Assembly: GCA_026195275.1 (NCBI GenBank)
Contig: JAPHQU010000002.1
Coordinates: forward strand, 5,964 to 69,963
From: Minisyncoccota bacterium
GTDB lineage: Bacteria > Patescibacteriota > Minisyncoccia > Phycocordibacterales > JABMNX01
Reading direction: 5' to 3'
Length of the DNA stretch: 64,000 nt
Below are positions 2,865 to 38,544 of the stretch, in pieces; positions within the stretch are counted from its first letter, which is position 1; each line of letters opens with the position of its first letter. The notes under the pieces are model-generated. The model ran no database searches. It saw nothing but the letters and a program-made list of their open reading frames with translations, and was not told the DNA's origin. Position numbers and translations under genes: made by a program.

Positions 2865-3001
2865 GAGTACGATAAAAGTGGTATGGAGGTTATCTCCATG
2901 TCTTTCTCGAAAGGAGGTGAGTCCGTTATCTCCCAGAGAGCCAGCATAGCTGGGGTTACCGCTCTCACACGTGCGGTTTCAATAGGCGAAGGAGGTTTTC
3001 A

Positions 3002-3027
3002 TCAAAGGCGCGCCCACAGGGCGCGCC
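3002..3027. terminator. perfect palindromic hairpin aggcgcgcc-cacag-ggcgcgcct
   Basis: 9-bp GC stem seen directly in sequence in the 260-bp noncoding gap after the DUF4015 gene; weak T-run so terminator function uncertain. Confidence 0.35.
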
Positions 3028-3127
3028 TCTTCATATCCCAAAGAGACACTCATTCTCATTGTATAAATAGGTATTTCTTTGTTTTACTCTTTCAACTTTC
3101 AACTTTTTACTTTACACTTGTTGATAT

Positions 3128-5041
3128 ATGGATGATCTCCAAAAAGTAACCTATATCGGCGCCACAGACGCGCGTGGCAAACGACAGCCTTTCGGTATCA
3201 AAGCGCTTGATCGCGCCAAGCACATGTATGTGATCGGCAAGACCGGTATGGGCAAGTCGACCTTGCTTGAGAATATGGCGATCCAGGACATCCAACATGG
3301 GAATGGCTTGGGCTTCATTGACCCACACGGCTCGACCGCTGAGAAACTCCTTGACTACGTGCCCGAGAATCGCATCAAGGACGTGATCTACTTCGCGCCG
3401 TTTGATATGGATTACCCGATCGCCTTTAACGTCATGGAGGATGTTGGCTACGACAAGCGACACCTCGTTGTCTCGGGACTCATGTCGACCTTTAAGAAGA
3501 TCTGGGTTGATGCGTGGTCGGCGCGTATGGAATACATTCTTACCAACGTGCTCCTTGCGCTCCTTGAGTATCCTGATTCGACACTCCTTGATGTGAATAA
3601 GATGCTCACCAACAAAGCCTTCCGCAAGAAAGTGGTTGAGAATATAACCGACCCCATCGTAAAGGATTTCTGGACGGTTGAGTTCGCAGGCTATACCGAC
3701 CGGTACACCCAAGAGGCAACCCCGGCAATTCAGAATAAGATCGGGCAATTTACCAGCAATCCGCTCATCCGCAACATCGTTGGGCAGCCAAAGTCGAGTT
3801 TTGATATGCGTGAAATCTTGGACTCCAAGAAGATATTCATTGCAAACCTCTCCAAAGGGCGCATGGGGGAGACTAACGCCGCACTTCTTGGAAGTATGCT
3901 TACCACCAAGATCTATCTCTCAGCCATGAGCCGCGCCGACGAGCCAGCTTCAGTTCAAGCGAAGCTCCCGCCTTTTTATTTCTATGTGGATGAGTTCCAA
4001 TCAATCGCGAACGAGTCGTTCGCCGACATTCTCTCTGAGGCCAGGAAGTACAAGCTCGCGCTCACAATCGCACACCAGTACGTCGAGCAGATGGAGGAGA
4101 ATGTGCGCAACGCCGTCTTTGGCAACGTGGGTAGCACGATCGCGTTTCGTGTCGGGCCGTTTGATGCTGAAGTGCTTGAAACCATCTTCCAACCCAAGTT
4201 CATGGCGGAAGACCTGGTCGGGCTCGGCTTTGCACAGATCTATCTCACACTTATGATCGATGGGGTTGGGTCAGCCCCTTTTTCCGCAACCACCCTGCCG
4301 CCAATTGAAGAGCCGGAGATTACCTTTAAGGATGAGGCTATCAAAACATCGCGCAGTGCATATGGTCGGTCGCGCGCCGAGGTTGAGCAAGTTATCTCTG
4401 ACCGCAACAAGGAGGAGCTACCTGAGCCGCCGATGGGTGGCATGAAGAAGAAAGGAGGACAAGGAACTCCACAGAAAAACAGTACTCAACCAAAAGGGCC
4501 GATAGTCCACAGCACAAGCGGAGCACGGAAGGAGAAGACAACTATCCCACTTGCTGCGCTTAAAATGCATCAAAAACCGAATGACAAAGGTCCGAGTCCC
4601 GAACAACGATCAGCACTCAAGGAGGCCCTAATGTCGGCTCAAAAAAAGGGAATCACGGGTGCACCCTCTGCTCCAAAGGAGCCTAAGTCACAAGAGAATC
4701 ATTCACAACCGCAGCGAAGAGGCGCTCCTGAGGGGGCAGTTTTACACACTATGGAACGCGATTCACAACAGCCGGAACCAGCTTCAGAAAAAAAGGAACA
4801 AAGACCTACTCCACCTGAAATAAAGAGAGGACAATCTTCAGCACCCCAGAAGGAAGAGCAAAAGGCGGTTCAACATAAAGAAACCGCCGCACAGAAACCG
4901 CCGCAAGGACCTCCCCAAAAAGAGACACCAGAAGAGGTCTCGACACAAACTCTTTCTCCCGAGCAGAAGATTCAAGCAGAAGGCTCGCCCGGAGAGGTGC
5001 CACTTGATGTGCTCGAAGATATATTAAAGGACGACAAATAA
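3128..5041 (+). CDS. soluble FtsK/HerA-superfamily ATPase of the TraD/TraG/VirD4 'type IV secretion DNA-binding domain' type, with ~200-aa disordered K/E/P/Q-rich C-terminal tail
   Basis: Walker A VIGKTGMGKSTLL, Walker B FYFYVDEFQ, LTIAHQY motif; no N-terminal TM helices; low-complexity tail from ~aa 430 ending DVLEDILKDDK. Confidence 0.65.
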   Translation: MDDLQKVTYIGATDARGKRQPFGIKALDRAKHMYVIGKTGMGKSTLLENMAIQDIQHGNGLGFIDPHGSTAEKLLDYVPENRIKDVIYFAPFDMDYPIAFNVMEDVGYDKRHLVVSGLMSTFKKIWVDAWSARMEYILTNVLLALLEYPDSTLLDVNKMLTNKAFRKKVVENITDPIVKDFWTVEFAGYTDRYTQEATPAIQNKIGQFTSNPLIRNIVGQPKSSFDMREILDSKKIFIANLSKGRMGETNAALLGSMLTTKIYLSAMSRADEPASVQAKLPPFYFYVDEFQSIANESFADILSEARKYKLALTIAHQYVEQMEENVRNAVFGNVGSTIAFRVGPFDAEVLETIFQPKFMAEDLVGLGFAQIYLTLMIDGVGSAPFSATTLPPIEEPEITFKDEAIKTSRSAYGRSRAEVEQVISDRNKEELPEPPMGGMKKKGGQGTPQKNSTQPKGPIVHSTSGARKEKTTIPLAALKMHQKPNDKGPSPEQRSALKEALMSAQKKGITGAPSAPKEPKSQENHSQPQRRGAPEGAVLHTMERDSQQPEPASEKKEQRPTPPEIKRGQSSAPQKEEQKAVQHKETAAQKPPQGPPQKETPEEVSTQTLSPEQKIQAEGSPGEVPLDVLEDILKDDK

Positions 5042-5043
5042 AT

Positions 5044-6468
5044 GTGACACAGCGATACGTCAGAGGAATACTCCTAATATTGTTTTTTTGGAGTCTTCCT
5101 GTGGGTACGCATGCATCGGTGGTGTTCTCTGAGGTCATGTATGATCTTGAAGGGTCCGATGAAAAGAGAGAATGGGTTGAGATATTTAATACTGGAGTTG
5201 TAGCAGTTGATCTAGCCGAGTGGCGTTTTTTTGACGGGTCAAACCATATCTTAAACGAGCCACCCAAGAACGGCAGCTCCGGGTCGCTGATACTTGCTCC
5301 TGGCGAATACATGATACTCGCAAGTGACGCGGGCACTTTTTTGTCGGAGTATCAGGTGTCTGTGTCGGTGATTGATACGGTCATGAGTCTTGGTCAGAAG
5401 AATGATCGAGAGTATACAATTCAACTAATTGATGGCGACGGGGTGGTTGTTGATAGCATGACGTATACGACCGACCAAGGAAGTGAGGGGAACTCGCTCT
5501 CTTATGAAGGTTCTTCTTGGAAGGCGGGTTTTCCAAACCCCGGAGAGGGGGACCTTGCAGCAGATGACGCTTCTTCTGCTGAAGACAATCAGGAGACCAC
5601 TTCAGGGTCGGAGAACCTCAGGGACTTCCCAACAGAACCGCAGATAACTGCCTTCGCGGGCGATAATCGAGTGGTAACCGTTGGTGCTGATGCTGAGTTT
5701 AAAGGAACAGCGGCCGGTCTTCTGGGTGAGCCACTTGCGGGTGCACGCTATTTGTGGAACCTGGGCGACGGGAGCACAAGAGAAGGAGAGTCGGTTCTCT
5801 ATCATTACCAGTACCCCGGAGAATACATTGTCGTGCTCAACGTCTCCTCAGGGGAGTTCAGCGCGACAGATCACATTGTTGTCTCAGCGCTTCCTGCGCT
5901 CGTCTATATCACTGAGGCGACACCTGCGTATGTTGCGCTTACCAATAAGAGTGACCGCACGCTTGATCTCTCATGGTGGATCCTTAAATCAGGAAGTGAC
6001 ACATTTATGCTTCCCGAATACACGAGCATACTGCCTGGGCACACATTGAGGTTTGCCGCGTCAGTCACTGGATTGCGTCCACAGGGCGCCTCGGATACTG
6101 AGCTACAGTACCCAAACGGGCGCGCGGTAACCTTAGATGAATCAGTCGTCTCAGAGAACACCCAGGCATATGGTCGGGTGGGTGCACTGGAGGCAGAGAC
6201 TGTGCGCTCGGGCCGCTCGATTGTCGGCATGACCGTCTCACCGGGAGCTGAACCGGCAGTGAGGGAGACGGTCGAGGTTGTCCAAAGTGACGCCAGAGAA
6301 CCAAAGACACAAGAGCGTGAGGTGCTCACCGCTTCTGTGAGGAGCACTTCTGGGAAAACTAGTTCGTTTTGGTATATTCTCGCCTTGCTTGGCGTTATCG
6401 CGTTCGGTATTTTAAGCACACTCTTTGTCAGGAGGGCATCACAAGACGAAATTACCATACTAGAGTAG
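5044..6468 (+). CDS. secreted, C-terminally membrane-anchored LTD-PKD-LTD protein (lamin-tail-domain surface protein)
   Basis: Signal peptide MTQRYVRGILLILFFWSLPVGTHA; LTD motif VVFSEVMYDLEGSDEKREWVEIFNTGVVAVDLAEWRFFDG; PKD-like ARYLWNLGDGSTREGESVLYHYQYPGEYIVVLNV; second LTD-like segment; C-terminal TM helix; GTG start within TAAATGTG junction with upstream gene. Confidence 0.6.
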   Translation: MTQRYVRGILLILFFWSLPVGTHASVVFSEVMYDLEGSDEKREWVEIFNTGVVAVDLAEWRFFDGSNHILNEPPKNGSSGSLILAPGEYMILASDAGTFLSEYQVSVSVIDTVMSLGQKNDREYTIQLIDGDGVVVDSMTYTTDQGSEGNSLSYEGSSWKAGFPNPGEGDLAADDASSAEDNQETTSGSENLRDFPTEPQITAFAGDNRVVTVGADAEFKGTAAGLLGEPLAGARYLWNLGDGSTREGESVLYHYQYPGEYIVVLNVSSGEFSATDHIVVSALPALVYITEATPAYVALTNKSDRTLDLSWWILKSGSDTFMLPEYTSILPGHTLRFAASVTGLRPQGASDTELQYPNGRAVTLDESVVSENTQAYGRVGALEAETVRSGRSIVGMTVSPGAEPAVRETVEVVQSDAREPKTQEREVLTASVRSTSGKTSSFWYILALLGVIAFGILSTLFVRRASQDEITILE

Positions 6469-6498
6469 GCACCCTTTCTATTGTATAGTTGAGATATT

Positions 6499-7794
6499 AT
6501 GGCTACCGTACGGAAGATAAAGACAGGCACAACCACACCAAAACGAGACAAGACAACGGCTTCGCGCCCCAAGAAGCGCGCGCTCATATTCTCCATGACC
6601 TACCAACCGTTTGTTGGTGGAGCCGAGGTTGCGGTACGTGAGATCACCGACCGGGTCTCGAAAGACGAGATCGAATTTCATATGATAACGCTCAGGTTCG
6701 ACAGTGCACTCCCAGAGGTTGAGCAAATTGGGAATGTGCTCGTGCATCGTATTGGGTTTGCTCGTCCACACCCCTCTCCTGAGGGTCTCAAGCAATTTCC
6801 ACTTCACCTCAACAAGCTCTACTACCAGGTAGCTGCGGCGCTTCGTGCAAGCCTGCTTCACCGGAAATATCACTATGATGCGACCTGGGCGATCATGGCG
6901 CATAGTGCAGGGGTCCCCGCAGCACTCTTTAAGATGAGCCACCCGCAGGTCCCGTATCTCCTCACACTCCAAGAAGGTGATCCGGTTGAGCACATTAAAC
7001 GGGTGATGCTCCCGCTCTACCCGCTCTTTGTTCGTGCATTTAAGCGCGCCGATCAACTCCAGGCAATCTCGACCCACCTCGCTTCGTGGGGGACAGCGAT
7101 GGGTTTCCATGGGAAGCCGGTGGTTATCCCAAACGGCGTTGATATCAATCGCTTCAGCAAGGAGTATCCGCGGCGCGAGCTTGAAGAGCTAAAACAGAAG
7201 CTCGACAAGAAGGTGAACTCAATCTTTTTAGTGACCACCTCACGGCTCGTTGAGAAGAACGGAATTGATACCGTGATACACGCACTTGTGAAGCTGCCGC
7301 CACAGGTATCATTCCTGGTACTCGGCGAGGGGCCCGAAGAAGAGAGGCTCAAAGCGCTCGCGCGCAATCTCGGGGTCATGAGTCGAGTGCGCTTTCTTGG
7401 GCACGTCCCACAAAAGGAGATCCCCAAGTATCTCAAGGTGTCAGAGATATTCATCAGACCTTCGCGTTCAGAGGGTATGGGCAACTCGTTCATCGAAGCA
7501 ATGGCGTCAGGGACACCGGTTATTGCGACACAGGTTGGAGGCATAACCGATTTTATTTTTGACCCTGACCGGAACCCCGACGTAAAGCCGACCGGACTTG
7601 CAGTCGACGTTGACGACTCGGCGGCAGTAGCCGAGCAGGTGCTTCGCTACAGCTCCGATGTGCTTTTGCGGCGGGAGATCACAGACAACGCCCACGCACT
7701 CGTAGAAGCGCGGTATGATTGGAAGCTCATTGTGCGCGCAATGCACGAGAAGGTGTTTACACCGCTTTTCTCGAAAACAACAGCGAGAAAATAA
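6499..7794 (+). CDS. glycosyltransferase family 4 (GT-B, Glycos_transf_1) with basic N-terminal extension
   Basis: ALIFSMTYQPFVGGAEV N-domain, EGMGNSFIEAMASGTPVIATQVGG C-domain motif. Confidence 0.8.
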   Translation: MATVRKIKTGTTTPKRDKTTASRPKKRALIFSMTYQPFVGGAEVAVREITDRVSKDEIEFHMITLRFDSALPEVEQIGNVLVHRIGFARPHPSPEGLKQFPLHLNKLYYQVAAALRASLLHRKYHYDATWAIMAHSAGVPAALFKMSHPQVPYLLTLQEGDPVEHIKRVMLPLYPLFVRAFKRADQLQAISTHLASWGTAMGFHGKPVVIPNGVDINRFSKEYPRRELEELKQKLDKKVNSIFLVTTSRLVEKNGIDTVIHALVKLPPQVSFLVLGEGPEEERLKALARNLGVMSRVRFLGHVPQKEIPKYLKVSEIFIRPSRSEGMGNSFIEAMASGTPVIATQVGGITDFIFDPDRNPDVKPTGLAVDVDDSAAVAEQVLRYSSDVLLRREITDNAHALVEARYDWKLIVRAMHEKVFTPLFSKTTARK

Positions 7795-7795
7795 T

Positions 7796-8941
7796 ATGAA
7801 TACCCAACGTACAATAAACCTCCTCATCGCTACCGGGGCATACCCGCCGGATATTGGTGGCCCGGCGACCTATGTGAAAATTCTCGAAGAAGAGCTTCCT
7901 CAAGAGGGGTTTGTGGTTTCTGCTCTGCCATTCGGGCGTGTACGCCGACTCCCGCGCTTCATTCGTCACGTTGCGTATGGATTCCTACTCTTTAGAGAAG
8001 GTCGCCACGCTGACATAATCTACGCGCTTGACCCGGTGAGTGTTGGGCTTCCCGCGGTGCTCATAGCACGCGCGCTGAGGAAGCGATTTATTGTACGCAT
8101 CGCAGGTGATTATGCATGGGAGCAGGGGGTGCAGCGCTTTAAGGTGAAAGATCATCTCGACGTGTTCTCAAAGAAGAATGATGAGTATCTACTTCCGATA
8201 CTTATACTCAAGTGGATACAGAAGTGGGTCGCGGAGAGTGCTGAGCGCGTCATTGTGCCGAGCGCGTACTTCAAAGGAGTCGTGAGTAATTGGGGGGTTG
8301 ATGAGGATCATATTGTTGTCATCTACACAGTTGTTGATGACATTGCGTCTCAAGGGAGGCGTGACTGGCTCCGCGAGATGGTGAAGTTCGACGGGAAGAT
8401 GCTCGTGAGCGCAGGGCGTCTCGTTCCATGGAAAGGGTTTGAGGCACTAATCGAGCTTGTACCCAAACTCGTCTCTCGCTACCCAGATTTTAAACTTCTT
8501 ATCGCTGGCGATGGCCCCGATTTTCACAAGCTCGATACAATGGTGTCACGGAAGAAACTCGACGAGTATGTAGCGCTCACTGGTTCACTCGAGAAAGCCG
8601 TGCTCTTTAAGTACATTCGCATGGCGGATGTCTTTGTACTAAATACCAATTACGAAGGTCTCTCGCATCAGCTTCTTGAGACCATGGCGATCGGCACACC
8701 TGTTGTCACCACGCGTGTCGGTGGCAACCCGGAGCTTATCAAGCATGAGAAGAACGGCCTTTTAGTTAAGTATAATAATAAGAATCAGCTGTTTGAGGCT
8801 ATTGTACGTTTGCTCGACAATGAAGGGGAGTCACAGCGCTTTGTGCGCAATGCACGCGAGACACTCAAGAAGTTCTCAGTTGAGCAGATGATCCCGAAGC
8901 TAGTAACTATTTTACGAGAAGACCATGGAAAGCAAACCTAA
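7796..8941 (+). CDS. glycosyltransferase family 4
   Basis: LLIATGAYPPDIGGPATYV, EGLSHQLLETMAIGTPVVTTRVGGNPELI; ATG 1 nt after upstream stop. Confidence 0.8.
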   Translation: MNTQRTINLLIATGAYPPDIGGPATYVKILEEELPQEGFVVSALPFGRVRRLPRFIRHVAYGFLLFREGRHADIIYALDPVSVGLPAVLIARALRKRFIVRIAGDYAWEQGVQRFKVKDHLDVFSKKNDEYLLPILILKWIQKWVAESAERVIVPSAYFKGVVSNWGVDEDHIVVIYTVVDDIASQGRRDWLREMVKFDGKMLVSAGRLVPWKGFEALIELVPKLVSRYPDFKLLIAGDGPDFHKLDTMVSRKKLDEYVALTGSLEKAVLFKYIRMADVFVLNTNYEGLSHQLLETMAIGTPVVTTRVGGNPELIKHEKNGLLVKYNNKNQLFEAIVRLLDNEGESQRFVRNARETLKKFSVEQMIPKLVTILREDHGKQT

Positions 8942-9845
8942 GGTACTCATGATAACCGCCGACGGGAATCTTGGCGTTCCCGGCACCGAGGCGAATCAAC
9001 GACTTCTGCTCCAAGAGAAGTATGCCGACATCACGCCGGTGTTTTGGGGACGTGGTGCACTCATACTTCCGTTTAGGGTCGGCGGCGCATTCGACGTGGT
9101 CTCGGTCCAGGATCCGTTCTGGCGCGGATTGGTTGGACTTCTTTTGGCGCGGCGGAAGCAGGCACGACTCAACGTGCAGGTACACACCGATCTTGAGGCG
9201 CAAGGTCCTCTGCGCCACTCGCTCGCGCGTTTTGTGCTCCGCCACGCTGATTCAGTGCGTGTCGTCTCAGAGAAGTTGCGCGAGCAAGCTGAAGAGATGG
9301 GAGTTACCGCACCTATTTCGGTGCTCCCTATCTATATTGACATTGAGCGTTTCTGCTCAATTGAACGCGCGCCAAGAGGAGGAGAACACAAAACAATACT
9401 TTGGGTTGGACGCTTTGAAGAAGAGAAAGACCCGCTGCGCGCGATTGACGTTCTTAACGAAGTTCGTGAAGGAGGGGTTGATGCAAAGCTTGTGATGCTC
9501 GGCACAGGGAGTCTCGAGAACGAACTCAAAAAGCGCGCAGAGGAACTCCCGGTCACATTCGCGGGTTGGCAAGACCCAGCACCGTTTTACGCTTCCGCAG
9601 ACGTACTCCTCAACACCTCGCGCTACGAGGGGTATGGCGTCGCAATGGTCGAGGCGCTTGCCGCAGGGGTGCCGGTTATCGCACCCGACGTTGGTATTGC
9701 GCGAGAGGCCGGCGCCATAGTCGTGGATCGCGACAAGCTCGCAGAAGCGATCACCAACACGCTCCGCTCAGGCACACGTGGCGAACTTCAGTTGCCGCTT
9801 CTCTCACAAGAGGAGTGGGGCAGGCAGTGGTCAAAGACTCTATAA
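8925..9845 (+). CDS. glycosyltransferase family 4 (short form)
   Basis: EGYGVAMVEALAAGVPVIAPDVG motif; overlaps upstream gene by 17 nt. Confidence 0.7.
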   Translation: MESKPKVLMITADGNLGVPGTEANQRLLLQEKYADITPVFWGRGALILPFRVGGAFDVVSVQDPFWRGLVGLLLARRKQARLNVQVHTDLEAQGPLRHSLARFVLRHADSVRVVSEKLREQAEEMGVTAPISVLPIYIDIERFCSIERAPRGGEHKTILWVGRFEEEKDPLRAIDVLNEVREGGVDAKLVMLGTGSLENELKKRAEELPVTFAGWQDPAPFYASADVLLNTSRYEGYGVAMVEALAAGVPVIAPDVGIAREAGAIVVDRDKLAEAITNTLRSGTRGELQLPLLSQEEWGRQWSKTL

Positions 9846-10882
9846 TGAAACTCTTAATTTGTACTCAGAAGATTGATAGGAACGACCCCATACTTGGGTT
9901 CTTTCATCGTTGGGTCAAAGAGTTTGCAAAGCATTCTGGGCAAGTGACGGTCATCTGTCTTGAGAAAGGCGAGTACGATCTTCCACAAAACGTTCGCGTG
10001 CTCTCTCTTGGCAAAGAAGAGGGAAAGGGGCGCCTCACATACCTCTCGCGCTTCTACCGCTACATCTGGCACGAGCGCACAAACTACGACGCGATCTTCG
10101 TGCATATGAATCAGGAATACGTTTTGCTCGGCTGGTTACCGTGGAGGCTTTTGGGTAAAAGGATATTTATGTGGAGAAACCACGCCAAGGGGAGTTGGCT
10201 TACTCGGCTTGCTGTTCTCTTATCCGACAAAGTATTTTGTACCTCACCACAGTCATTCACAGCGAATTTTAAAAAGACAGAGCTCATGTCTGTGGGTGTC
10301 GACACAGATTTCTTCAAACCCGACTCATCAGTTCACAAAAGACCGCACTCAATCCTTTTCTTGGGGCGTATAGCACCGGTTAAACGCGTCGACATGTTCA
10401 TTGAAGCCCTACGAATACTTAAAGATAAAGGGATTGATTTTACAGCGACCATAGCAGGAAATTCATTACCACGGGACGCAGAATACGAAACAATGATTCG
10501 CAATAAAGTTCTTACGCACGGTCTCTCGTCCCAAGTAGTGTTCACGGGTTCTGCGTCGCGCACTCAAGCTCGAGATCTCTATCGAGAGCACGAGCTGTAT
10601 GTGAACCTTACTCCGTCGGGTAGCTTGGACAAGACCATTTTTGAAGCTCTTGCCTCTGGCCTCAAGGTGGTCATCTCAAACAATTTTTTTGAAGGAAAAT
10701 TGCCGAAAAGATGGGTTATCACCGATGATTCCGACGCCCATGTTATAGCAGCCACCCTTGAAGATGTTCTTAGTGAGGGTTCAGAGATAGTAAATGATAT
10801 TGCATCATTCACTAAGAAACACAGTCTCAAGAGTCTAATGGATGTATTGGTGACAGCCATGAATGCATCAAGCGCGAAATAA
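9845..10882 (+). CDS. glycosyltransferase family 4
   Basis: MKLLICTQKIDRNDPILGFFHRWVKEF start at TAATG overlap; ORF track start 9566 is an in-frame TTG extension. Confidence 0.7.
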   Translation: MKLLICTQKIDRNDPILGFFHRWVKEFAKHSGQVTVICLEKGEYDLPQNVRVLSLGKEEGKGRLTYLSRFYRYIWHERTNYDAIFVHMNQEYVLLGWLPWRLLGKRIFMWRNHAKGSWLTRLAVLLSDKVFCTSPQSFTANFKKTELMSVGVDTDFFKPDSSVHKRPHSILFLGRIAPVKRVDMFIEALRILKDKGIDFTATIAGNSLPRDAEYETMIRNKVLTHGLSSQVVFTGSASRTQARDLYREHELYVNLTPSGSLDKTIFEALASGLKVVISNNFFEGKLPKRWVITDDSDAHVIAATLEDVLSEGSEIVNDIASFTKKHSLKSLMDVLVTAMNASSAK

Positions 10883-10887
10883 GTAAT

Positions 10888-11997
10888 ATGAAATTGATCT
10901 ACGTTACCTCTAAGAAATTTCCTTCTGGGAAAGTCGATCCTTTTTACGTACGGTCGATGGCAGAGGCATTCACCGCGCTCCTCGGTCGGGACTTCTTGTT
11001 TCTTGTGAGAGGAAGCGTGCCCGACCAACTGAAACACACGAATGCCACAGCAGTGAGAATACCAAACCGTCTGAGGGTGGTCTACTACTTCTTTTTGATG
11101 CCGGTTCTTACAATGTTGCGCAAATGGAATGATTCAGAAACAATATTTATTTCTTATGACCCATACCTTCTCTCGATACTTATATTCTGGCGAAAGGTAT
11201 TCGGATCTAGATACTTCATCTGCTCTGATTGGCATCAGCTCTTTGATGATTGGAAAGATAAATATGTGTCAACAAATAGTGATTACCTGACATGCACATC
11301 GAAAAGGTTAAAGAGACTTTTGTCATCTGCCTGCGACATTGACCCAAGTAAGATATTGGTTGCGTACGGTGGCGTAGACCCGGATATCTTTATCAAGAAA
11401 TCGGAGATAGGTAAGATGGAATACCGAAAGAGGCTAGGGCTGCCAAGAGGCTCGTTTCTAGTGGGTTATGTGGGCGGCTTTAGGAGTGTCGGTATGGAAA
11501 AAGGTCTTGATACCATGATCAAGGCTCTCCCGTATCTGGATGAAAAGATACTCATGGTGTTTGTTGGCGGGTCTGTGGAACACATCAATGAATACAAGGC
11601 GCTCGCGGAGGAGATTGGCGTTGAAGAGAAATGCATATTCGTAGAGAAACAACCGTTTGAGAAAGTTGTCGAGTACGAATTGGCACTAGATATTCTTACC
11701 ATACCGTATCCGGACAAACATCACTTCAGAGACTACGGCTTTCCGATGAAAGTGTGGGAGTGCATGGCCGCCGGTCGCCCGATAGTATACTCGGATCTCG
11801 ATATCATAGGAGAGGTACTTGAGGGTAGGGCGACCTCTTTTCAACCGGACGATGCGCGAAGTCTCGCAGATACCGTGTTGTCTATCTATCAAGATACGGA
11901 ATCTGCAGAGAAGATTGCAAAACAAAACCCCGTGGATATACAAGCGTATACTTGGAAGGCTCGAGCAAAGAATATTTTAGATTTTATACAAATATAG
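10888..11997 (+). CDS. glycosyltransferase family 4
   Basis: GT-B two-domain architecture, FPMKVWECMAAGRPIVYSDL motif. Confidence 0.7.
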   Translation: MKLIYVTSKKFPSGKVDPFYVRSMAEAFTALLGRDFLFLVRGSVPDQLKHTNATAVRIPNRLRVVYYFFLMPVLTMLRKWNDSETIFISYDPYLLSILIFWRKVFGSRYFICSDWHQLFDDWKDKYVSTNSDYLTCTSKRLKRLLSSACDIDPSKILVAYGGVDPDIFIKKSEIGKMEYRKRLGLPRGSFLVGYVGGFRSVGMEKGLDTMIKALPYLDEKILMVFVGGSVEHINEYKALAEEIGVEEKCIFVEKQPFEKVVEYELALDILTIPYPDKHHFRDYGFPMKVWECMAAGRPIVYSDLDIIGEVLEGRATSFQPDDARSLADTVLSIYQDTESAEKIAKQNPVDIQAYTWKARAKNILDFIQI

Positions 11998-21531: not shown

Positions 21532-23307
21532 ATGACCACATTAAAACCCAAAGAGAGAATACTTGTTGTTTGCGGCAAGGATTTTCCTACCACACGCAGA
21601 ATTAAACACAAGTTTAATATAATCGTAGCAGATAAGATATTTCAAAAGGATGTAGAGACTCTAGGTTGCAGATTTATAGAACTCGGAATGTTTGTTGATC
21701 CAGGAAGCGTTTACAAAGCGGGCTCTTTCCTTGAAGAACTCTCTATATTGACCCTCCCGGATGGTTCCCGTCTTTCAAGGCGCTTTATATATAAAGGTTA
21801 TGAATTATGGTGGATACATTACAATAGTCTTTTTACTTATTTCTCTTTACCATACACTCAATATAAGAGGCTGCTTGAATATCTGAGGGATTTTCAGAGA
21901 GTGTCCTTTTATCAGCCTTCATTCAAGAGCCTTTTCTCTTGTTATCTACGTGCGTATGGGTGTGAAGTAAGTACTCTCCATGGGAGACATTTAAAATTTC
22001 CATCATTCCTTCCATTTGGTGTCTTATTTCAGATAATCCTTACCCTATTAAGTCTGCCTATTCTCACCATAAAGAAGTCGCCTGCGATGCTATTCACCGG
22101 AGACAAGTTTGAAGAAGACAAAGACTATGATTTTAGGATGAAATTTATTTATGAGGAGCTACGACAAAGAAATATCCGTTTTGTTGAATTTATCCGTAGT
22201 TTGGAATCGTGGAAGACTGTACTAAAGCATGCACTTAAACGAAGGAGACCTGTGATTTATTCAGACAGTATAGTTTTTATTGGACGGTTTATAAGCATAA
22301 TATCAGGTGGGCGACGTCGCGCTGAGCAGAAATTTGGCACTCATAAACTTATTTCTGAGACGGATCCTGAGAACCGGTTCAAATATCTGGTGGCTACCCA
22401 ATACCTCCTTACGGTGTACGATGACGTTTGGGCAATACGGATTATGGAATGGATTTTACACGCGATTGGTATCAGGGTAGCGCTGGTTATAAGTGCATCA
22501 GAACGCAGTTTTCACACTGTCTTAGGGTGTAAATTGAATTCCATACCAACAGTTGGAATCATGCACGGTGTTGCATCACGCTACGGAACTCCTTGTGACT
22601 TTATGATTGGCTTTGATGGCAAGAAGATGCTTTCGGTTGACAATTATGGTGTTTGGAGTGATTGGTGGAAGGTGCACTATATGAGGAATAGTCAATCGTA
22701 CAAACCTGAACAGATTCATGTGTCTGGTCCCATGCGTCCGCTTATGTTGGTGGAGGAACAGAATACAACCTCGACATCACAAGATGAACGAATGAGGGTG
22801 CTTTTTATCGCCGAGCAAACAGCTGATCCTAGTGAAGTGATGCTATATCTCCATAAGCTTTTACATTGCACGGATATAAGGTTGACGATAAAGTTCCGTC
22901 CATATCGCGACGGTTTTGAAATATGGCTTTTAGAGAACGAACCCCAGATCTTAAAACTCCCGCATATAAAGGTTGTTAAGGGAGGTATGCAAGAAGCAAT
23001 TCAAAATGTCGATGTTGTCGTTGGTTGTCATAGCACCGCTGTACTTGAAGCACTACTTCAGTTAAAAGTTCCCATCTTCCTTCGCACACAAAAGTGGGGT
23101 GACTACTACAGCATGACTCAATCAGATAAAACCCGACACCTAATCGCCGAGAATCCAGGAGAGCTCATTGAGCAGATTCAGCACGCAGGCACCATCACCC
23201 CAAGTCTTTTAACAGAGTTGCGCGAGCAATACTTTGGTGATCCGCATAAAAACGGGAGCAAGTGGGTGGTGGATCAGGTAGAAGAGATCCTGCAGAAGAC
23301 AAACTAA
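21532..23307 (+). CDS. hypothetical GT-B-fold protein, weakly TagB/TagF glycerophosphotransferase- or capsule-biosynthesis (KpsC/KpsS)-like
   Basis: C-terminal VVGCHSTAVLEALLQLKVPIFL resembles donor-binding strand of TagF/KpsC-type enzymes; otherwise no clear motifs. Confidence 0.35.
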   Translation: MTTLKPKERILVVCGKDFPTTRRIKHKFNIIVADKIFQKDVETLGCRFIELGMFVDPGSVYKAGSFLEELSILTLPDGSRLSRRFIYKGYELWWIHYNSLFTYFSLPYTQYKRLLEYLRDFQRVSFYQPSFKSLFSCYLRAYGCEVSTLHGRHLKFPSFLPFGVLFQIILTLLSLPILTIKKSPAMLFTGDKFEEDKDYDFRMKFIYEELRQRNIRFVEFIRSLESWKTVLKHALKRRRPVIYSDSIVFIGRFISIISGGRRRAEQKFGTHKLISETDPENRFKYLVATQYLLTVYDDVWAIRIMEWILHAIGIRVALVISASERSFHTVLGCKLNSIPTVGIMHGVASRYGTPCDFMIGFDGKKMLSVDNYGVWSDWWKVHYMRNSQSYKPEQIHVSGPMRPLMLVEEQNTTSTSQDERMRVLFIAEQTADPSEVMLYLHKLLHCTDIRLTIKFRPYRDGFEIWLLENEPQILKLPHIKVVKGGMQEAIQNVDVVVGCHSTAVLEALLQLKVPIFLRTQKWGDYYSMTQSDKTRHLIAENPGELIEQIQHAGTITPSLLTELREQYFGDPHKNGSKWVVDQVEEILQKTN

Positions 23308-24569
23308 GTATTTGTGTTTCTTCTCCACATACCAATACCAATCAATAGTGCTATCAGAGAATTGGATACATTTGCTATCACAAGTCCAAGTACTCCTCCC
23401 CAGATTCCTAGAATCACATAAAGTGTGACGAGTATGACACTTTGAATTATGCTTCTGATGAAAATGAGACGAGATAATTTCTGTGATTCAAAAAGGAGGC
23501 TGACATAGCGGTTGGGCATTGCAAAGATAAAACCTAACGCTAATATCTGCGAGTAGACAACCCCCTCTATATACTGAGGTAGTAGGTATTTGAATAAATA
23601 TGGCGAGATAAGTATATATGTGACCGCTATAAGCGTACCGATGAACATTCCCTGGAAGATTCTTTTGTAGAAAACAGTATTTATTTCTTCAGGTGTCTTT
23701 GTTGCGAACTTGGGGAATCCTAAGCCGACCCAGTTTTTCATGAATGAGGTTGCTCTGTCTGGTACAGCAAGGGCAAGCCAATACACAGCAAGCTGTGCCG
23801 GACCCCAGAAGTGCGTGAGAATGATCTTGTCTATCTGTCCAGTGATTGGTCCAATGAGTCGTATAAAACTTAGCTTGCGACCATACTTGAGTACGTCTCC
23901 AACATCGCCCTCTAGAGACGGCTTGAACTTTCGCAGGATGACAATATAAAAGAAGAGTGTTGTGGCAAACGTCGTAATAGCATAAGCGGCTATGAGCCAC
24001 ACTATTTCTCCGCTTAACAGGATTGCAGCTAGAATACCGCCCACATATACGAGAGTGGATATGATGTTCGATATGCTAGCGAATTGGAACTTTCTTTTCC
24101 CTTCAAGATAAGCGCCGTATGTATTTAAGGCGAGAGTTGAAGGAACAAAGATACCTAAAATAAGAAAGGATATCGCAAGAAGAGTATTGTCATTTATGAA
24201 ATAGTATCCGCTGAAGGTAAAGAACGCAGTAAGCATCAACAAGTTCCACTTGAGTTGGTATTTGACAGAAACCCTGAGCGCTCCGTCGTGCCCCGCGGCA
24301 ACAGCTCTTGCAACTGCGCTGTTCATGCCGGTGAGCGTGAATATATTCAACACGCCTGCTAAGGCAAGGATGTAGCGGTAGAGACCATAAACATCTTTTG
24401 GTAGCAAGTTAGCAAAAGCCACTATGAGCCCCAACGAGAGAATGCTCGTGATGGTTTGTCCAAATGTCACCCAAAAGCCGCCTTTGGCGAGGTAGAGCAT
24501 GTCGGTTTTTGTGTACTTTTCGCTCCAACGGAGGAGGCGATAGAGCTTGTTTCTGGCTTTGGGTATCAT
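23304..24569 (-). CDS. wzx: oligosaccharide flippase (Wzx / polysaccharide biosynthesis protein, MOP superfamily)
   Basis: ~12 predicted TM helices, length 421 aa, typical N-terminal KGGFWVTFGQ... of Wzx family; only large minus-strand gene in cluster. Confidence 0.7.
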   Translation of the reverse strand: MIPKARNKLYRLLRWSEKYTKTDMLYLAKGGFWVTFGQTITSILSLGLIVAFANLLPKDVYGLYRYILALAGVLNIFTLTGMNSAVARAVAAGHDGALRVSVKYQLKWNLLMLTAFFTFSGYYFINDNTLLAISFLILGIFVPSTLALNTYGAYLEGKRKFQFASISNIISTLVYVGGILAAILLSGEIVWLIAAYAITTFATTLFFYIVILRKFKPSLEGDVGDVLKYGRKLSFIRLIGPITGQIDKIILTHFWGPAQLAVYWLALAVPDRATSFMKNWVGLGFPKFATKTPEEINTVFYKRIFQGMFIGTLIAVTYILISPYLFKYLLPQYIEGVVYSQILALGFIFAMPNRYVSLLFESQKLSRLIFIRSIIQSVILVTLYVILGIWGGVLGLVIANVSNSLIALLIGIGMWRRNTNT

Positions 24570-34911: not shown

Positions 34912-37900
34912 ATGCCAGAAGGTATTTTCTTAAATAACAAAAAATATTTCTCTTCTCGAGATGCGGCGAGTTATGCCGGCTATACCAACGACTACGTCTC
35001 CCGGCTCTGTCGCGAGGGAAAGGTGCCTGGGCAGATGATGGGTCGGGTGTGGCATGTCGAGGCGGAGCCGTTTCTTGAATTCATTCTTGGGCAGGAGCAG
35101 AAGAAGGTCGAGCAGTCACAAGCGCTCTCAGAAGGACGAAAGAAGACATACCAAAAGAGTGTTGAAGAAGATGAGATTGAGAAGCTCACGAGTCTCAGTA
35201 TTCCGCGTGTCGCACTCCCAGTGCCCGCCATCTCCCGAGAGTTGATCGAGAAGTCTGTCGCACTCAGCTTTGCGGTCTTTCTTGTGTTTGGTTCGTACTT
35301 GGCAAAAGATTCTGAATTTGTTCGTGCGACACCTGCGGCGATTGTGTCGTACGCGACAGAGGTGCGCAACAACACACTCGGCATGGTCGAGGGTGTTCGT
35401 GAGGGTGTAGAACTTTCTTCAGTACAAACACGATCCCTTATCTCGAGTGTCGCAAGCGGTGCTTACACAGATGAAATAAAAGAACAGTTCTCTCTTAAAA
35501 ATATCTCTCTTGCGGCTTCCAACTTCGGGGGGCGCATTCTTGATGTAATCGAGCGTGGTATGAAAGGATACCTTTCATTAGTTGTCCTAGCTGGCGAAGG
35601 TGTTGTTTCGGTAAGTGATGCAATCGCTAAACTCCCTGTTGTTGCACGCGAGGCATCAGTCGCAGACATTGTCGCGTACAGCACGCAAAAGGTACAAGAT
35701 GTTGCGGCTAGCACTTCAGGCGGACTGGGCAACGCACGCGAATATTTTTTGGTCTCGATTGCTCGTGGTGTAGATGGGGCGAAGCAGATTTTCCAGAATT
35801 CTCACACAACACTCGCCGCGGTGAATGTTCCTGATTTCTTTGGGAGTCTTTCAAGCAGTATTCGTTTTGGCATCATCGACTGGCTCGACATCCAATCAGA
35901 AGGAGTGGTCACTACTCCTTCCTTTGTAGAGGAGCCACAGGCAGTTATTGAACATCCAGTGATTGAGCGGGTCGTGGAGACGAGGGAGACGATCGTGCGT
36001 AGCGGTATCACCGAAGAGTATGTGCTTGCCAAACTCGAGGAACTTAACAATAAACTATCTTCAAAGATATACGATCTCACTGCTAGCAATGCATCAAGTA
36101 TCGCTAGTAACTTCAATACAATCGCAAAGACGAATATCATTAACAAACTCAAGTCAGTAACGATCACAAGCTCAACGATCACTGATTCGACGATCAATGG
36201 CAATTCAACATTCTCCGGAACGACTGGTTCATTCAGCGGAGCGGTCGATGTCGGGTCGCTCACAGTGGGTGGTGAGGTAATCACTGGCGGGCTTACTGTC
36301 GGTACCGACGGGATTGTCTTTGTGAGTAGTTCCGGCAATGTAGGTATTGGTACCACCTCACCATACGCAAAACTCTCTGTGGTAGGAGAGGTGGTTGCCG
36401 CTAACTTCACCGCCACCTCAACGAGCGCGACCTCAACTTTCAATGGCGCACTTCTCGCAACACGCGCACCAACGCTTCCACATACATTTTCAGTTTGGTC
36501 ACCTGGCGCCAGTGGCTCCAATTATGCTGACGCTTCTCTCGTGATTAATCCAGCTTCATCCGTTGCCGATGGAAACCTGATCACCGCCTCTGTAGGTGGG
36601 TCGGTTAAATTCATTGTTGACGCCGAGGGAGGTGTGTTTACTAACTCACTTACCTCAGTTGGTGGCGTGACGCTCTCGACCACTACTGCGGCAACGTTCA
36701 CAGTTGAAGGCAACACTACGTTGGGTGACTCTGTCTCTGATGTAACCACAATCAACGGTACACTCACTGTAACTGGACAGACGTCTGTCTCAACAGTTGA
36801 TGGTAACTTCGGCGTGGGCACCACGTCTCCATGGGCACGTCTCTCGGTTGCGGGGGTGTCGAATGGTACCGACCCACTCTTTACAATCTCCACCTCAACC
36901 GCATCAGCAACCTCAACTGCGGTGTTAGTTGATGCAAACGGCAACTTTGGTATCGGTACTACATCACCATCTGCAACTTTTGCGGTTGAAGGTGACGCGT
37001 ATATTAACGGGGTGATCACCACCGACCTCACTACTTCAGGGATCGTCGACTTCAGTGGTACGGGTACCACAACCTTTGGAGGTGACATAGAAGTACAGGG
37101 TCTTTCTGCAATCAATTACCTTGAGACACCATTCATCTATGCGACCTCTACCACTGCCACGTCGACATTCGCCGGCGGTCTTGCAATAGAGACCACCGGA
37201 CTGGTGTATGACTATTCGACGAATAGAGTGGGAATTGGGACGGCATCACCAAGTCAGTCGCTTGATGTGTACGGAAAGATAGCACAAAACGGATTGCAGA
37301 TGTTGTACAACGCTAACGCAGGCGGCTACACAGGGTCGCTATTCTTTGGTAGTGGTGGAGGAAGCCTTTCCCATACATCAGGAAGTGAAGGATATTATAA
37401 TACAGCGGTTGGATATGATACCCTGCTTTCAAATACAACCGGAAGTTATAACTCAGCACTTGGATACAAAGCGCTCTACTCAAATACCACGGGAGACAGC
37501 AACACTGCTGTAGGGAAGGACGCGCTTCGGTATAATACGACCGGGTTTCAGAATACCGCCATAGGACTCGACGCGCTTCAAGCTAATACCGAGGGGTATA
37601 ACAACTCCGCCCTAGGATTCGATGCTCTTTACTCAAATACCACAGGATACACCAACATTGCTGTAGGGATGAGCGCGCTCTACCGCAATACCGAGGGGTT
37701 CGATAACGTCGCAGTGGGATACGAGGCACTCCATGATAACACCATCGGAGATGGAAGTGTTGCTTTAGGTCTCGGTGCCCTCTACAACAACACTACCGGG
37801 GGTTGGAATGTCGCTTTGGGGCCTCACGCCGGCAGGTACGTCACTGGTAGTGTCGCGAATGAGTCTTCTGAGTACTCAGTGTACATTGGTGCGAACACAA

Positions 37901-38544
37901 AAGGGTTTGCAGACGGTGATTCAAACGAGATTGTTATCGGCTACAACGCCACCGGTATAGGATCCAATACGGTAACTCTCGGAAACGACTCTATTGTTAC
38001 CACAGCACTTAAGGGAAATGTCGGCATCGGTACCACAACCCCGTGGGGCAAGCTCTCCATTGAGATGGATACAACCGATCCGTCCTTTGTCGTCTCCAAC
38101 CAGGGCTCATCAACCCCTGCACTCTATGTCTCGGGTGTAAACCAGGACGGCGTCGTGGGTATTGGTACGACCGGTGGCACCGGTCGCAGACTCGATGTCT
38201 TTGACGCGGGCAATCCGCAGTTGCGTCTCTCGCAGACGAGCAGTATCTACACGAACTTCCAAGTTGCAGCAAGCACTGGAGACCTCACGATCGACCTCAA
38301 CCCGAACACAAGCGCGACAAACATTTACCTTACACAAACAGGCGGTTCGACCGGTGCAAACCTGCGTGTGTGTGAAGGTTCGGCCTGCCCGAGTGTGACG
38401 ATCTCAAGCGGTGGTAATGTGCTCGCCGAGAACGGTTTCTACTTCGGCAACGGCTACAAGCTCGACCAGGTCGCTGGCACCACGACCGAGATTGCGGTGT
38501 ATGACACCAGTGCGACTGCGATCATCATCTTCGATGAGTTCTAA
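34912..38544 (+). CDS. giant (1210 aa) surface protein: N-terminal HTH_17-like domain, single TM helix, then tail-fibre-like extracellular region with NVGIGTTSP motifs and seven or eight 17-aa xxNxAxGxxALxxNTxG repeats
   Basis: N-term FSSRDAASYAGYTNDYVSRLCREGKVPGQMMGRVWHV paralogous to upstream gene; TM SVALSFAVFLVFGSYLAK; repeats read directly in translation; stop 5 nt before tatC start. Confidence 0.6.
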   Translation: MPEGIFLNNKKYFSSRDAASYAGYTNDYVSRLCREGKVPGQMMGRVWHVEAEPFLEFILGQEQKKVEQSQALSEGRKKTYQKSVEEDEIEKLTSLSIPRVALPVPAISRELIEKSVALSFAVFLVFGSYLAKDSEFVRATPAAIVSYATEVRNNTLGMVEGVREGVELSSVQTRSLISSVASGAYTDEIKEQFSLKNISLAASNFGGRILDVIERGMKGYLSLVVLAGEGVVSVSDAIAKLPVVAREASVADIVAYSTQKVQDVAASTSGGLGNAREYFLVSIARGVDGAKQIFQNSHTTLAAVNVPDFFGSLSSSIRFGIIDWLDIQSEGVVTTPSFVEEPQAVIEHPVIERVVETRETIVRSGITEEYVLAKLEELNNKLSSKIYDLTASNASSIASNFNTIAKTNIINKLKSVTITSSTITDSTINGNSTFSGTTGSFSGAVDVGSLTVGGEVITGGLTVGTDGIVFVSSSGNVGIGTTSPYAKLSVVGEVVAANFTATSTSATSTFNGALLATRAPTLPHTFSVWSPGASGSNYADASLVINPASSVADGNLITASVGGSVKFIVDAEGGVFTNSLTSVGGVTLSTTTAATFTVEGNTTLGDSVSDVTTINGTLTVTGQTSVSTVDGNFGVGTTSPWARLSVAGVSNGTDPLFTISTSTASATSTAVLVDANGNFGIGTTSPSATFAVEGDAYINGVITTDLTTSGIVDFSGTGTTTFGGDIEVQGLSAINYLETPFIYATSTTATSTFAGGLAIETTGLVYDYSTNRVGIGTASPSQSLDVYGKIAQNGLQMLYNANAGGYTGSLFFGSGGGSLSHTSGSEGYYNTAVGYDTLLSNTTGSYNSALGYKALYSNTTGDSNTAVGKDALRYNTTGFQNTAIGLDALQANTEGYNNSALGFDALYSNTTGYTNIAVGMSALYRNTEGFDNVAVGYEALHDNTIGDGSVALGLGALYNNTTGGWNVALGPHAGRYVTGSVANESSEYSVYIGANTKGFADGDSNEIVIGYNATGIGSNTVTLGNDSIVTTALKGNVGIGTTTPWGKLSIEMDTTDPSFVVSNQGSSTPALYVSGVNQDGVVGIGTTGGTGRRLDVFDAGNPQLRLSQTSSIYTNFQVAASTGDLTIDLNPNTSATNIYLTQTGGSTGANLRVCEGSACPSVTISSGGNVLAENGFYFGNGYKLDQVAGTTTEIAVYDTSATAIIIFDEF

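Follow-up and report, generated by a model that had tools for sequence, protein, structure and literature searches.

Type IV coupling proteins (T4CPs), among them TrwB of plasmid R388, VirD4, TraD, Cag-beta and DotL, have in common a RecA-like domain interrupted by an all-alpha insertion, together with Walker A and B motifs and a TraG-D_C region. In the Patescibacteria, VirD4-type homologues have been found in 2,918 of 3,035 genomes (96%), only 148 of the 5,713 homologues lie near virB4, and the authors of that survey considered exaptation possible (PMC12102498). The VirB4 clade was recorded in 2,407 assemblies, fewer than the T4CP homologues, and in Southlakia epibionticum the type IV secretion system (T4SS) is essential, whereas the T4CP homologue is non-essential (PMC12102498). 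Patescibacteria constitute a large share of bacterial diversity; most of them cannot make nucleotides and probably subsist on scavenged DNA, and most are without a recognizable ComEA, which was found in only 31% of the genomes of the Candidate Phyla Radiation (CPR) (PMC6744442). Lamin-tail domains (LTDs), in turn, are fused to extracellular nucleases and to proteins of extracellular DNA metabolism (PMC6085458, PMC5118699, PMC8289736). Here we describe a gene pair of a Minisyncoccota bacterium (GenBank assembly GCA_026195275.1, contig JAPHQU010000002.1, positions 5,964 to 69,963), located in a stretch of 64,000 nucleotides (nt) that we refer to as the window: an ATPase of the coupling-protein type and, directly downstream, a surface protein with two LTDs and a PKD domain, hereafter the partner.

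The window contains a clean example of the secretion-system-detached VirD4-like ATPase found in 96% of Patescibacteria genomes (PMC12102498). With high confidence, this ATPase is an exapted, anchorless coupling-type (VirD4/TraD/TrwB) enzyme encoded beside a modular surface protein, and the two genes form, with equally high confidence, a chromosomal pair typical of the class Paceibacteria. The pair hints at a role in DNA uptake, without proving it. As judged from sequence comparison, the strongest functional clue is a head swap: 15 of the 62 partner orthologues have, instead of the N-terminal LTD, a helix-hairpin-helix (HhH) domain of the ComEA type, a known extracellular module for binding of double-stranded DNA. 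The two genes and their junction are located as follows (lengths in amino acids, aa).

3128 to 5041, + strand: ATPase gene, ATG start, 637 aa, called as an open reading frame (ORF)
5044 to 6468, + strand: gene of the partner surface protein, GTG start, 474 aa, called as an ORF
5026 to 5046, + strand: gene junction, with a Shine-Dalgarno-like AAAGGA (5026-5031), the stop codon TAA (5039-5041), a 2-nt spacer and the GTG start at 5044

Both ORFs proposed in an earlier note on this DNA were thus found where it had placed them, and its description of a stop codon fused to the GTG start has to be corrected, the two being 2 nt apart. The AAAGGA site lies 12 nt 5' of the GTG, and the ATPase and its partner are probably co-translated. 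The start of the partner is not certain, because the NCBI record of the identical protein, named 'lamin tail domain-containing protein', begins 12 codons downstream and comprises 462 aa; its start would correspond to the TTG at 5080. The identical ATPase sequence is likewise recorded at NCBI, as 'T4SS DNA-binding domain-containing protein'. Since both exact proteins are on record and more than 8000 homologues of the ATPase exist at the cluster level, the pair is more than a chance occurrence.

The elements of the ATPase, all within the first of the two genes, are listed below.

3128 to 4417, + strand: folded ATPase core, RecA-like nucleotide-binding domain with inserted helical domain (aa 1-430)
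3236 to 3259, + strand: Walker A P-loop GKTGMGKS (aa 37-44), aligning to the P-loop of TrwB
3449 to 3823, + strand: all-alpha insertion (aa 108-232), eight helices between strands 86-89 and 236-240 of the structural model
3974 to 4000, + strand: Walker B region FYFYVDEFQ (aa 283-291), aligning to Walker B of TrwB
4061 to 4078, + strand: LTIAHQ strand with sensor-like glutamine motif (aa 312-317), in strand 310-316 of the model
4418 to 5038, + strand: disordered P/K/E/Q-rich C-terminal tail (aa 431-637, 207 aa)
4589 to 4648, + strand: conserved short helix in the tail, GPSPEQRSALKEALMSAQKK (aa 488-507; predicted helix 491-507; L497 invariant)
4991 to 5038, + strand: conserved C-terminal tail motif GEVPLDVLEDILKDDK (aa 622-637; E623 and L629 at least 90% conserved)

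Three Pfam families of coupling proteins exceed their curated cut-offs in the ATPase, namely TrwB_AAD_bind (PF10412; 28.6 bits versus 20.5, spanning aa 30-340), TraG-D_C (PF12696; 25.6 versus 22) and T4SS-DNA_transf (PF02534; 20.9 versus 20.1), each narrowly, by 0.8-8 bits. The NCBIfam scores are far below threshold (45.7 versus 366 for TraD, 34.5 versus 250 for CD1115), and the ATPase therefore falls outside every curated equivalog; its nearest full-length NCBIfam match is the VirD4-like family CD1115, which has 442 positions (E 1e-8). The strings that the earlier note had quoted as TraD/TraG/VirD4 signatures are all present, VIGKTGMGKSTLL at aa 35-47 in addition to the FYFYVDEFQ and LTIAHQ segments listed above. 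Examination of the Walker A residues shows that G37, G40, G42 and K43 are invariant in alignments of both 26 and 97 sequences, as are K38, T39, M41 and S44 in the former. In the Walker B region, F285-Q291 are invariant in close relatives, and Y286, D288, E289, F290 and Q291 are kept in at least 90% of 97 diverse relatives; the same level applies to the nearly invariant Q317. From these motifs we judge with high confidence that the ATPase is catalytically intact.

The ATPase contains no membrane helix, as had been claimed for its N-terminus: its best 19-residue Kyte-Doolittle (KD) window reaches 1.5, at aa 363 within the folded core, and Walker A is located already at aa 37. The disordered tail of about 200 aa had also been described correctly. 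It is composed of 14% P, 13% K, 11% E and 11% Q, it shows a predicted local confidence (pLDDT) below 50 over most of its length in a first AlphaFold2 (AF2) model, and its length and sequence differ among relatives. An ending resembling 'EVPE..L..(L/I)LK' was seen by eye in the majority of 84 loci, and also in the majority of the loci that have no partner downstream; a regular expression matched none of them, and no count is given.

The first AF2 model, built from the 26-sequence alignment of close relatives, was discarded (pLDDT 60, with core residues 289-392 mis-folded). The model based on the 97 diverse relatives reached a pLDDT of 95 and a predicted TM-score (pTM) of 0.92 for the core (aa 1-435). 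Its all-alpha insertion is placed as in coupling proteins, and the overall fold resembles that of TrwB. In a Foldseek comparison with the PDB, TrwB chains came first (E 5e-14, TM 0.63-0.64), followed by HerA, Cag-beta, DotL, DptH-C and VirB4. TrwB, at 14-16% identity, was also the sole PDB match in a sequence search with a profile of close relatives, the similarity running through Walker A and Walker B (E 1.4e-3). The fold comparisons thus place the predicted structure in the VirB4/VirD4/HerA group of ring ATPases; the best overall fit is the coupling-protein branch, which Foldseek and Pfam favor over HerA, VirB4 and DptH. Unlike the latter proteins, the ATPase locus has no NurA, Sir2 or Dnd partner, and the VirB4 N-terminal domain is absent. 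No DUF87 (PF01935) or HerA Pfam match was obtained for the window ATPase at E<=0.01, and some relatives give faint or weak ones. The features of FtsK/SpoIIIE (PF01580, the gamma domain, an N-terminal membrane domain) were not found in the ATPase; as to a replacement of FtsK by the ATPase, we found no sign in the literature that Patescibacteria lack FtsK, which is mentioned for TM7x. Because the Pfam coupling-protein families pass and TrwB is the only PDB sequence match, assignment to an unrelated P-loop family does not apply, and the earlier view of a TraD/VirD4-type member of the FtsK/HerA superfamily stands. A homologue on an Embleya plasmid, 29% identical, is part of a cluster with PrgI, a VirB4-like ATPase, a T4CP, a replication-relaxation protein and an NlpC-P60 protein, and on this basis the ATPase lineage descends from true coupling proteins of monoderm conjugation.

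Unlike T4CPs, the ATPase has no N-terminal membrane anchor, is encoded chromosomally, is 57-87% identical throughout a class of bacteria, ends in a disordered tail of 200 aa and stands apart from any T4SS or relaxase gene among the scanned ORFs of the window. In agreement with the earlier note, no T4SS, pilus or relaxase genes were found among the 37 of about 50 large ORFs in the 64 kb that were scanned with Pfam (7715-11997 and several smaller ORFs after 45.7 kb were not included). Precomputed Pfam assignments likewise revealed no T4SS channel genes or relaxase in four related and four long-form loci. A T4SS may still be encoded elsewhere in the genome, outside the 64 kb. It is conceivable that the ATPase is the true coupling protein of a chromosomal patescibacterial T4SS, encoded far from virB4, with the partner possibly serving as a T4SS-associated surface adhesin. 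Monoderm T4SSs typically have such adhesins; moreover, the ATPase shares its fold and Pfam membership with coupling proteins, the distant Embleya homologue lies within a genuine T4SS cluster of the monoderm type, and the CD1115 family, with its 442 positions, is short enough that it may consist of anchorless VirD4-like proteins. Furthermore, T4SSs are widespread in Patescibacteria and their t4cp genes are often distant from virB4 (PMC12102498). This explanation is unlikely, however, in view of the missing anchor, the lack of T4SS genes among the ORFs scanned in 64 kb, a core whose conservation greatly exceeds that of typical coupling proteins and the NCBIfam TraD and CD1115 scores far under their cut-offs. 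The published survey argues in the same direction, with just 148 of 5,713 homologues near virB4, 2,918 genomes with a homologue versus 2,407 for the VirB4 clade, and a homologue that is non-essential where the T4SS is essential (PMC12102498).

The ATPase family is very widely distributed. A word-indexed search returned at least 8000 homologues, the best 120 of which are 57-81% identical and belong to organisms named Kaiserbacteria, Paceibacterota and similar; an exhaustive search of representatives at 50% identity yielded 5,728 clusters at E<=1e-30, and the gene is carried by at least 591 species-level genomes. Long-form relatives consist of an N-terminal membrane helix (KD 2.5-3.1 in three of the four checked), a DUF8128 domain (PF26449) of about 380 aa and an ATPase core 45-55% identical to that of the window, many of them with a disordered tail as well; they occur in Berkelbacteria and other Patescibacteria. 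Since relatives with the same core keep the membrane helix and DUF8128, both of which the window ATPase lacks, the latter represents a short, anchorless form, and it is this form that typifies the Paceibacteria. A split-off gene for DUF8128 or for a membrane domain was sought and found neither in the window nor in 80 related loci. The neighbors of the long forms (L085, 3851-9988; L086, 3862-9937; L087 and L088, about 5770-10160) also differ from those of the window ATPase, being either a tandem paralogue or a Sigma70_r4 protein. In Berkelbacteria two DUF8128-ATPase paralogues stand in tandem with a gene for 171-175 aa between them, and in two other lineages a Sigma70_r4 protein of 374-409 aa is encoded directly upstream. 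One long form ends in a C-terminal S1 RNA/single-stranded-DNA-binding domain.

Outside the Patescibacteria, homologues of the ATPase core are carried by large Bacillus phages, i.e., phage G (gp156, 27% identical, JN638751.1 91984-93165), CP-51, JL and Shanette. Of 349 plasmid records with a core match, 283 are typed as non-mobilizable. A Sulfitobacter plasmid carries a lone 395-aa copy (NZ_CP081110.1 99994-101181), which at 39% identity is unusually close for a protein from outside the Patescibacteria.

The window ATPase almost certainly belongs to the gene population catalogued by Quinonero-Coronel et al. 2025 (PMC12102498). A text search of that paper found no mention of ComEA or of lamin tail domains, and no description of short forms versus DUF8128 long forms. 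The designation of the locus as an undescribed orphan therefore needs to be divided: the pairing appears to be undescribed, whereas ATPases away from virB4 have already been catalogued, in 2,918 of 3,035 genomes (PMC12102498). What appears to be new is the regular pairing of the short form with a surface protein whose LTD can be exchanged for a ComEA-type domain, together with the description of short and long forms.

The partner is composed of the following elements.

5044 to 5115, + strand: signal peptide (aa 1-24), N-terminus MTQRYVRGILLILFFWSLPVGTHA, ending in ...PVGTHA/S as read from the sequence
5110 to 5469, + strand: N-terminal LTD head (aa 23-142, Pfam), the exchangeable module
5644 to 5883, + strand: PKD Ig-like domain (aa 201-280, PKD_4 and PKD)
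5923 to 6126, + strand: second LTD (aa ~294-361), from the second Pfam stretch and a family-specific hidden Markov model (HMM)
6373 to 6429, + strand: C-terminal transmembrane anchor (aa ~444-462; 19-residue KD value 2.45 at aa 444)
6430 to 6465, + strand: short cytoplasmic tail RRASQDEITILE, 12 residues after the membrane helix

Its Pfam matches, all above curated cut-offs, comprise LTD (PF00932) in two stretches (84.2 bits), PKD_4 (PF18911; 40.7) and PKD (PF00801; 29.7); the signal peptide, two LTDs, PKD domain and C-terminal anchor claimed for it are all present. Profile searches of both proteins, which the earlier note had proposed as a check, thus return PF10412, PF12696 and PF02534 on the one hand and the LTD and PKD families on the other. 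A basic-then-hydrophobic N-terminus occurs in nearly all 62 partner orthologues, in some of which the called ORF start lies upstream of it. A C-terminal membrane helix was recognized in 54 of the 62 by a crude hydrophobicity filter, several of the other eight being cut by a contig end or having a helix that the filter missed. The signal peptide and single C-terminal helix predict extracellular exposure and a membrane tether, as in ComEA. Many orthologues share an acidic-hydrophobic C-terminal ending (K.EWDIIEE, EEFDIE, DEITILE, DFTIIDE), which in sequence looks like a cytoplasmic docking or sorting signal; another, mostly HhH-headed subgroup ends at the membrane helix (KSPWTLGLLGV..AG.AFIFL).

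The partners were assembled by calling ORFs in 80 species-level loci, which were searched with the window proteins and family HMMs; three loci were too short, leaving 77 assessable. Among the 62 partners scanned with Pfam, PKD was found in 55, LTD in 49 and the ComEA-type HHH_3 (PF12836) in 15, at 48-83 bits in the ten scanned individually; HHH_3 is absent from the window partner. Their modular architectures are distributed as follows.

LTD-PKD-LTD: 37 of 62
HhH-PKD-LTD: 12 of 62
HhH-PKD, cut by a contig end: 1 of 62
unknown head-PKD-LTD: 6 of 62
LTD only: 4 of 62
HhH only: 2 of 62

The best PDB matches of the HhH head are the HhH domain of EEPD1 and ComEA. Forms with this head occur in at least three sequence clusters of the ATPase, interleaved with LTD-headed forms. 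The architectures therefore describe one gene in which the PKD-LTD stalk and the anchor stay the same while the head is exchanged. A literature search revealed no mention of this head swap.

Like ComEA, the partner is membrane-tethered and extracellular, with a ComEA-type HhH head in 15 of its 62 orthologues; unlike ComEA, the window protein lacks HhH, carries PKD and LTD modules and is anchored at its C-terminus, whereas ComEA of B. subtilis is anchored at the N-terminus. Like ExeM, the Xds-like proteins and Hvo_1477, which are linked to the use of extracellular DNA (PMC6085458, PMC5118699, PMC8289736), it is secreted or membrane-associated and has an N-terminal LTD. Unlike these proteins, neither the window partner nor the 62 orthologues scanned with Pfam contain a nuclease or phosphatase domain.

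We tentatively favor, among several readings, a DNA-receptor-plus-motor module, in which the partner would take the place of ComEA as receptor and the ATPase would drive DNA from the cytoplasm. The preference for this reading derives from the reported dependence of Patescibacteria on scavenged DNA, the reported presence of ComEA in only 31% of CPR genomes (PMC6744442) and the observation that the ATPase family is more common than VirB4; the fusion of LTDs to extracellular nucleases and the S1 domain of one long form also speak for it. The partner might then serve as the ComEA counterpart of these organisms, a cell-surface receptor that captures extracellular DNA; in its LTD-headed form, binding could be direct or mediated by divalent cations or some other ligand. 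On the cytoplasmic side of the membrane, a ring of the ATPase would use ATP to draw in or process the incoming strand, in a role akin to that of ComFA beside the ComEC channel, and the imported DNA could feed recombination or nucleotide salvage in an organism that, being a Patescibacterium, is expected to be without de novo synthesis of nucleotides (PMC6744442). The combination of receptor and cytoplasmic ATPase would mirror ComEA and ComFA in its logic, although ComFA is a DEAD-box helicase and the window ATPase is not. Assembly of the ATPase into rings, its action on DNA and any contact with the partner or with ComEC are features that we infer.

A broader version of the same idea, which we consider doubtful, regards the detached VirD4-like ATPase as a coupling protein working in reverse, the missing cytoplasmic motor for DNA import via ComEC, with the Paceibacteria having an anchorless form and a receptor whose LTD replaces the HhH of ComEA. 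If true, it would account for the fact that most nucleotide-auxotrophic Patescibacteria are without a recognizable ComEA. Should the functional link between the two proteins be real, it would provide a directly testable model of DNA acquisition in Patescibacteria and a first indication of what bacterial lamin-tail domains do; if the link is not functional, the partner is still, on account of the head swap, a candidate for an alternative receptor of DNA.

The conservation of the pair was assessed in the 77 loci. The partner is located directly downstream of the ATPase in 58 of them (75%), so that the co-occurrence in related genomes that the earlier note had proposed to examine is indeed found; the spacer is 2 nt in the window and has a median of about 5 nt across 56 loci, with rough picking of starts. 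In two rearranged contexts (L039 and L095), with flanks unlike those of the usual block, the pair is kept.

A number of observations weigh against the receptor-plus-motor reading. In 19 of the 77 species the partner is missing, and the epimerase and family 4 glycosyltransferase (GT4) genes come immediately after the ATPase; conversely, no ATPase is encoded within 5 kb of three of the four distant partner homologues, and the long forms of other Patescibacteria have no LTD or ComEA neighbor. The block rsmI, DUF4015, ATPase, partner and glycosyltransferases is syntenic as a whole in the sampled lineages. Its flanking genes are retained more often than the partner with its 75%: rsmI/DUF4015 precede the ATPase in 52 of 54 loci, and GT4/epimerase genes follow in 51 of 59. 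The conserved neighborhood is therefore weak evidence of function and no proof of it. The sample is also phylogenetically narrow, because the ATPase cores of all 80 loci are 69-77% identical to that of the window. The tail motifs at aa 488-507 and 622-637 are about as frequent without the partner as with it, which leaves partner-specific docking motifs in the tail unsupported. The ATPase has neither a membrane anchor nor a detectable link to ComEC, no gene for which turned up in the scanned part of the window, and in S. epibionticum neither the T4CP homologue nor ComEC is essential (PMC12102498, PMC12857230). As for the partner, the LTD of ExeM is dispensable for DNA degradation in vivo (PMC6085458). 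The LTD head is strongly acidic, unlike a DNA binder, with a net charge of -14 in the window protein and an orthologue median of -10 (pI 4.1); electrostatic binding of DNA by this head is accordingly disfavored.

Several of these points would be explained if the two genes were functionally unrelated members of a frozen syntenic block, the ATPase having another core cytoplasmic role in DNA or protein handling and the partner being an independent ComEA-like receptor or adhesin that acts with type IV pili and ComEC or in host attachment. We consider this a real, if somewhat unlikely, possibility. It agrees with the better retention of the flanking genes, the occurrence of each gene without the other (19 of 77 loci for the ATPase, three of four distant cases for the partner), the different neighbors of the long forms, the independence of the tail motifs from the partner and the near-universal distribution of the ATPase family (2,918 of 3,035 genomes; PMC12102498). 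The two proteins also diverge at greatly different rates, the ATPase core being 69-87% identical across the loci versus 15-40% for the partner. Such a block does not readily account for the very short spacer or overlap of the genes in most loci or for the survival of the pair in two rearranged contexts, and a ComEA-type head beside a DNA-translocase-like ATPase is a suggestive functional match. With regard to the minimal module for DNA binding, uptake or export that the earlier note suggested, the co-occurrence of the pair and the HhH head in 15 of 62 partners speak for it, whereas a dedicated module is not established in view of the syntenic block, the 19 partnerless species and the acidic LTD. 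Its description of the locus was right, and its functional idea is reasonable and unproven.

The scanned genes of the window comprise RsmI, DUF4015, a surface-polysaccharide cluster, SecA, Obg, GatB, TatC, GAPDH, transketolase and a release factor (RF). The surface-polysaccharide cluster (6499-26825, 20 kb) begins 30 nt after the partner gene. It encodes GT4s, an Asn-synthase-like amidotransferase, methyltransferases, a family 9 glycosyltransferase (GT9), a pyruvyl transferase, a deacetylase, a Polysacc_synt flippase-like protein and a Wzy_C+TPR protein, and all scanned genes are on the same strand except that of the flippase-like protein (23304-24569). Between 16 and 22 kb the G+C content is 0.39-0.41 instead of about 0.50, which points to replacement of this segment by horizontal transfer. 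The 438-aa ORF at 9566-10882 has an Arg-rich start overlapping the preceding gene, and its glycosyltransferase probably begins near MKLLICTQKIDRND, at about residue 95.

This neighborhood raises the alternative of a cell-envelope module, with the partner as a surface or S-layer-like glycoprotein or host adhesin that is made and decorated in concert with the downstream glycan cluster, and the ATPase serving export or assembly. The cluster follows the pair on the same strand (apart from the flippase-like gene) as far as 26.8 kb, no terminator-like site was found between 6468 and 6499, GT4/epimerase genes lie downstream in 51 of 59 loci even where the partner is missing, a DUF4015 glycosyl-hydrolase-like gene lies upstream, and surface layers typically contain acidic Ig-like ectodomains of this kind. 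We nonetheless consider the alternative very improbable: the ComEA-type head of 15 orthologues points to nucleic acid rather than glycan, the partner, with its ordinary Sec signal peptide, does not require an ATPase of its own, and we know of no member of the VirB4/VirD4/HerA group that drives the export of glycans or glycoproteins.

A place of the ATPase in a mobile element or an anti-phage defense system is less credible still, indeed hardly to be expected. The ATPase matches PADLOC mad8 (E 7e-13) and, weakly, HerA, as well as PHROG 5156, a family of unknown function (E 8e-54); homologues at 19-27% identity are carried by large Bacillus phages, and one in Bradyrhizobium stands among CHAT/TPR genes. 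The mad8 match covers only profile positions 4-263 of 314 (260), spread over aa 8-354 of the ATPase. We disfavor such an origin, as the PADLOC and PHROG similarities are at the family level only and the context is of the housekeeping type, syntenic across hundreds of species. Neither PADLOC nor PHROG gives a match for the partner, and no integrase, other defense genes or repeats were found among the scanned ORFs. Extreme conservation and near-universal occurrence of the family (PMC12102498) also argue against it.

Upstream of the pair, the following region separates it from the DUF4015 gene.

2865 to 3127, + strand: intergenic region 5' of the ATPase gene, 263 nt between the DUF4015 gene and the ATPase gene

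This spacer contains a perfect GC hairpin, GGCGCGCC-CACAG-GGCGCGCC, at about 3008-3028. Its predicted folding is unusually stable (z -4.46, with none of 200 shuffles as good); a known RNA was rejected, since Rfam gave none, and the spacer can be aligned only with that of the nearest relative (L001). From its sequence, the region probably holds the terminator of the DUF4015 gene and a promoter or leader of the pair. TATACT/TATAAT-like boxes are found directly 5' of the ATPase start in several relatives, and strings resembling AAGGAGGTGA reappear in the spacers of relatives.

Further along the window, a 1210-aa ORF (34912-38544), downstream of an HTH_17 protein and just 5' of tatC, has no Pfam match at E<=1e-4. 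A 284-aa protein (40881-41735) adjoining a sulfotransferase matches the phage tail-fiber adhesin Gp38 family (E 1.8e-7, 31.7 bits, cut-off 25), and a 472-aa protein (42788-44206) contains two Bact_surface_Ig-like domains; both are candidates for additional surface or adhesion proteins. Nearly all convincing genes of the window are on the + strand, and the cumulative GC skew climbs near-steadily from 0 to 2.6 over positions 1-64000, consistent with a location on one replichore with strong gene-strand bias.

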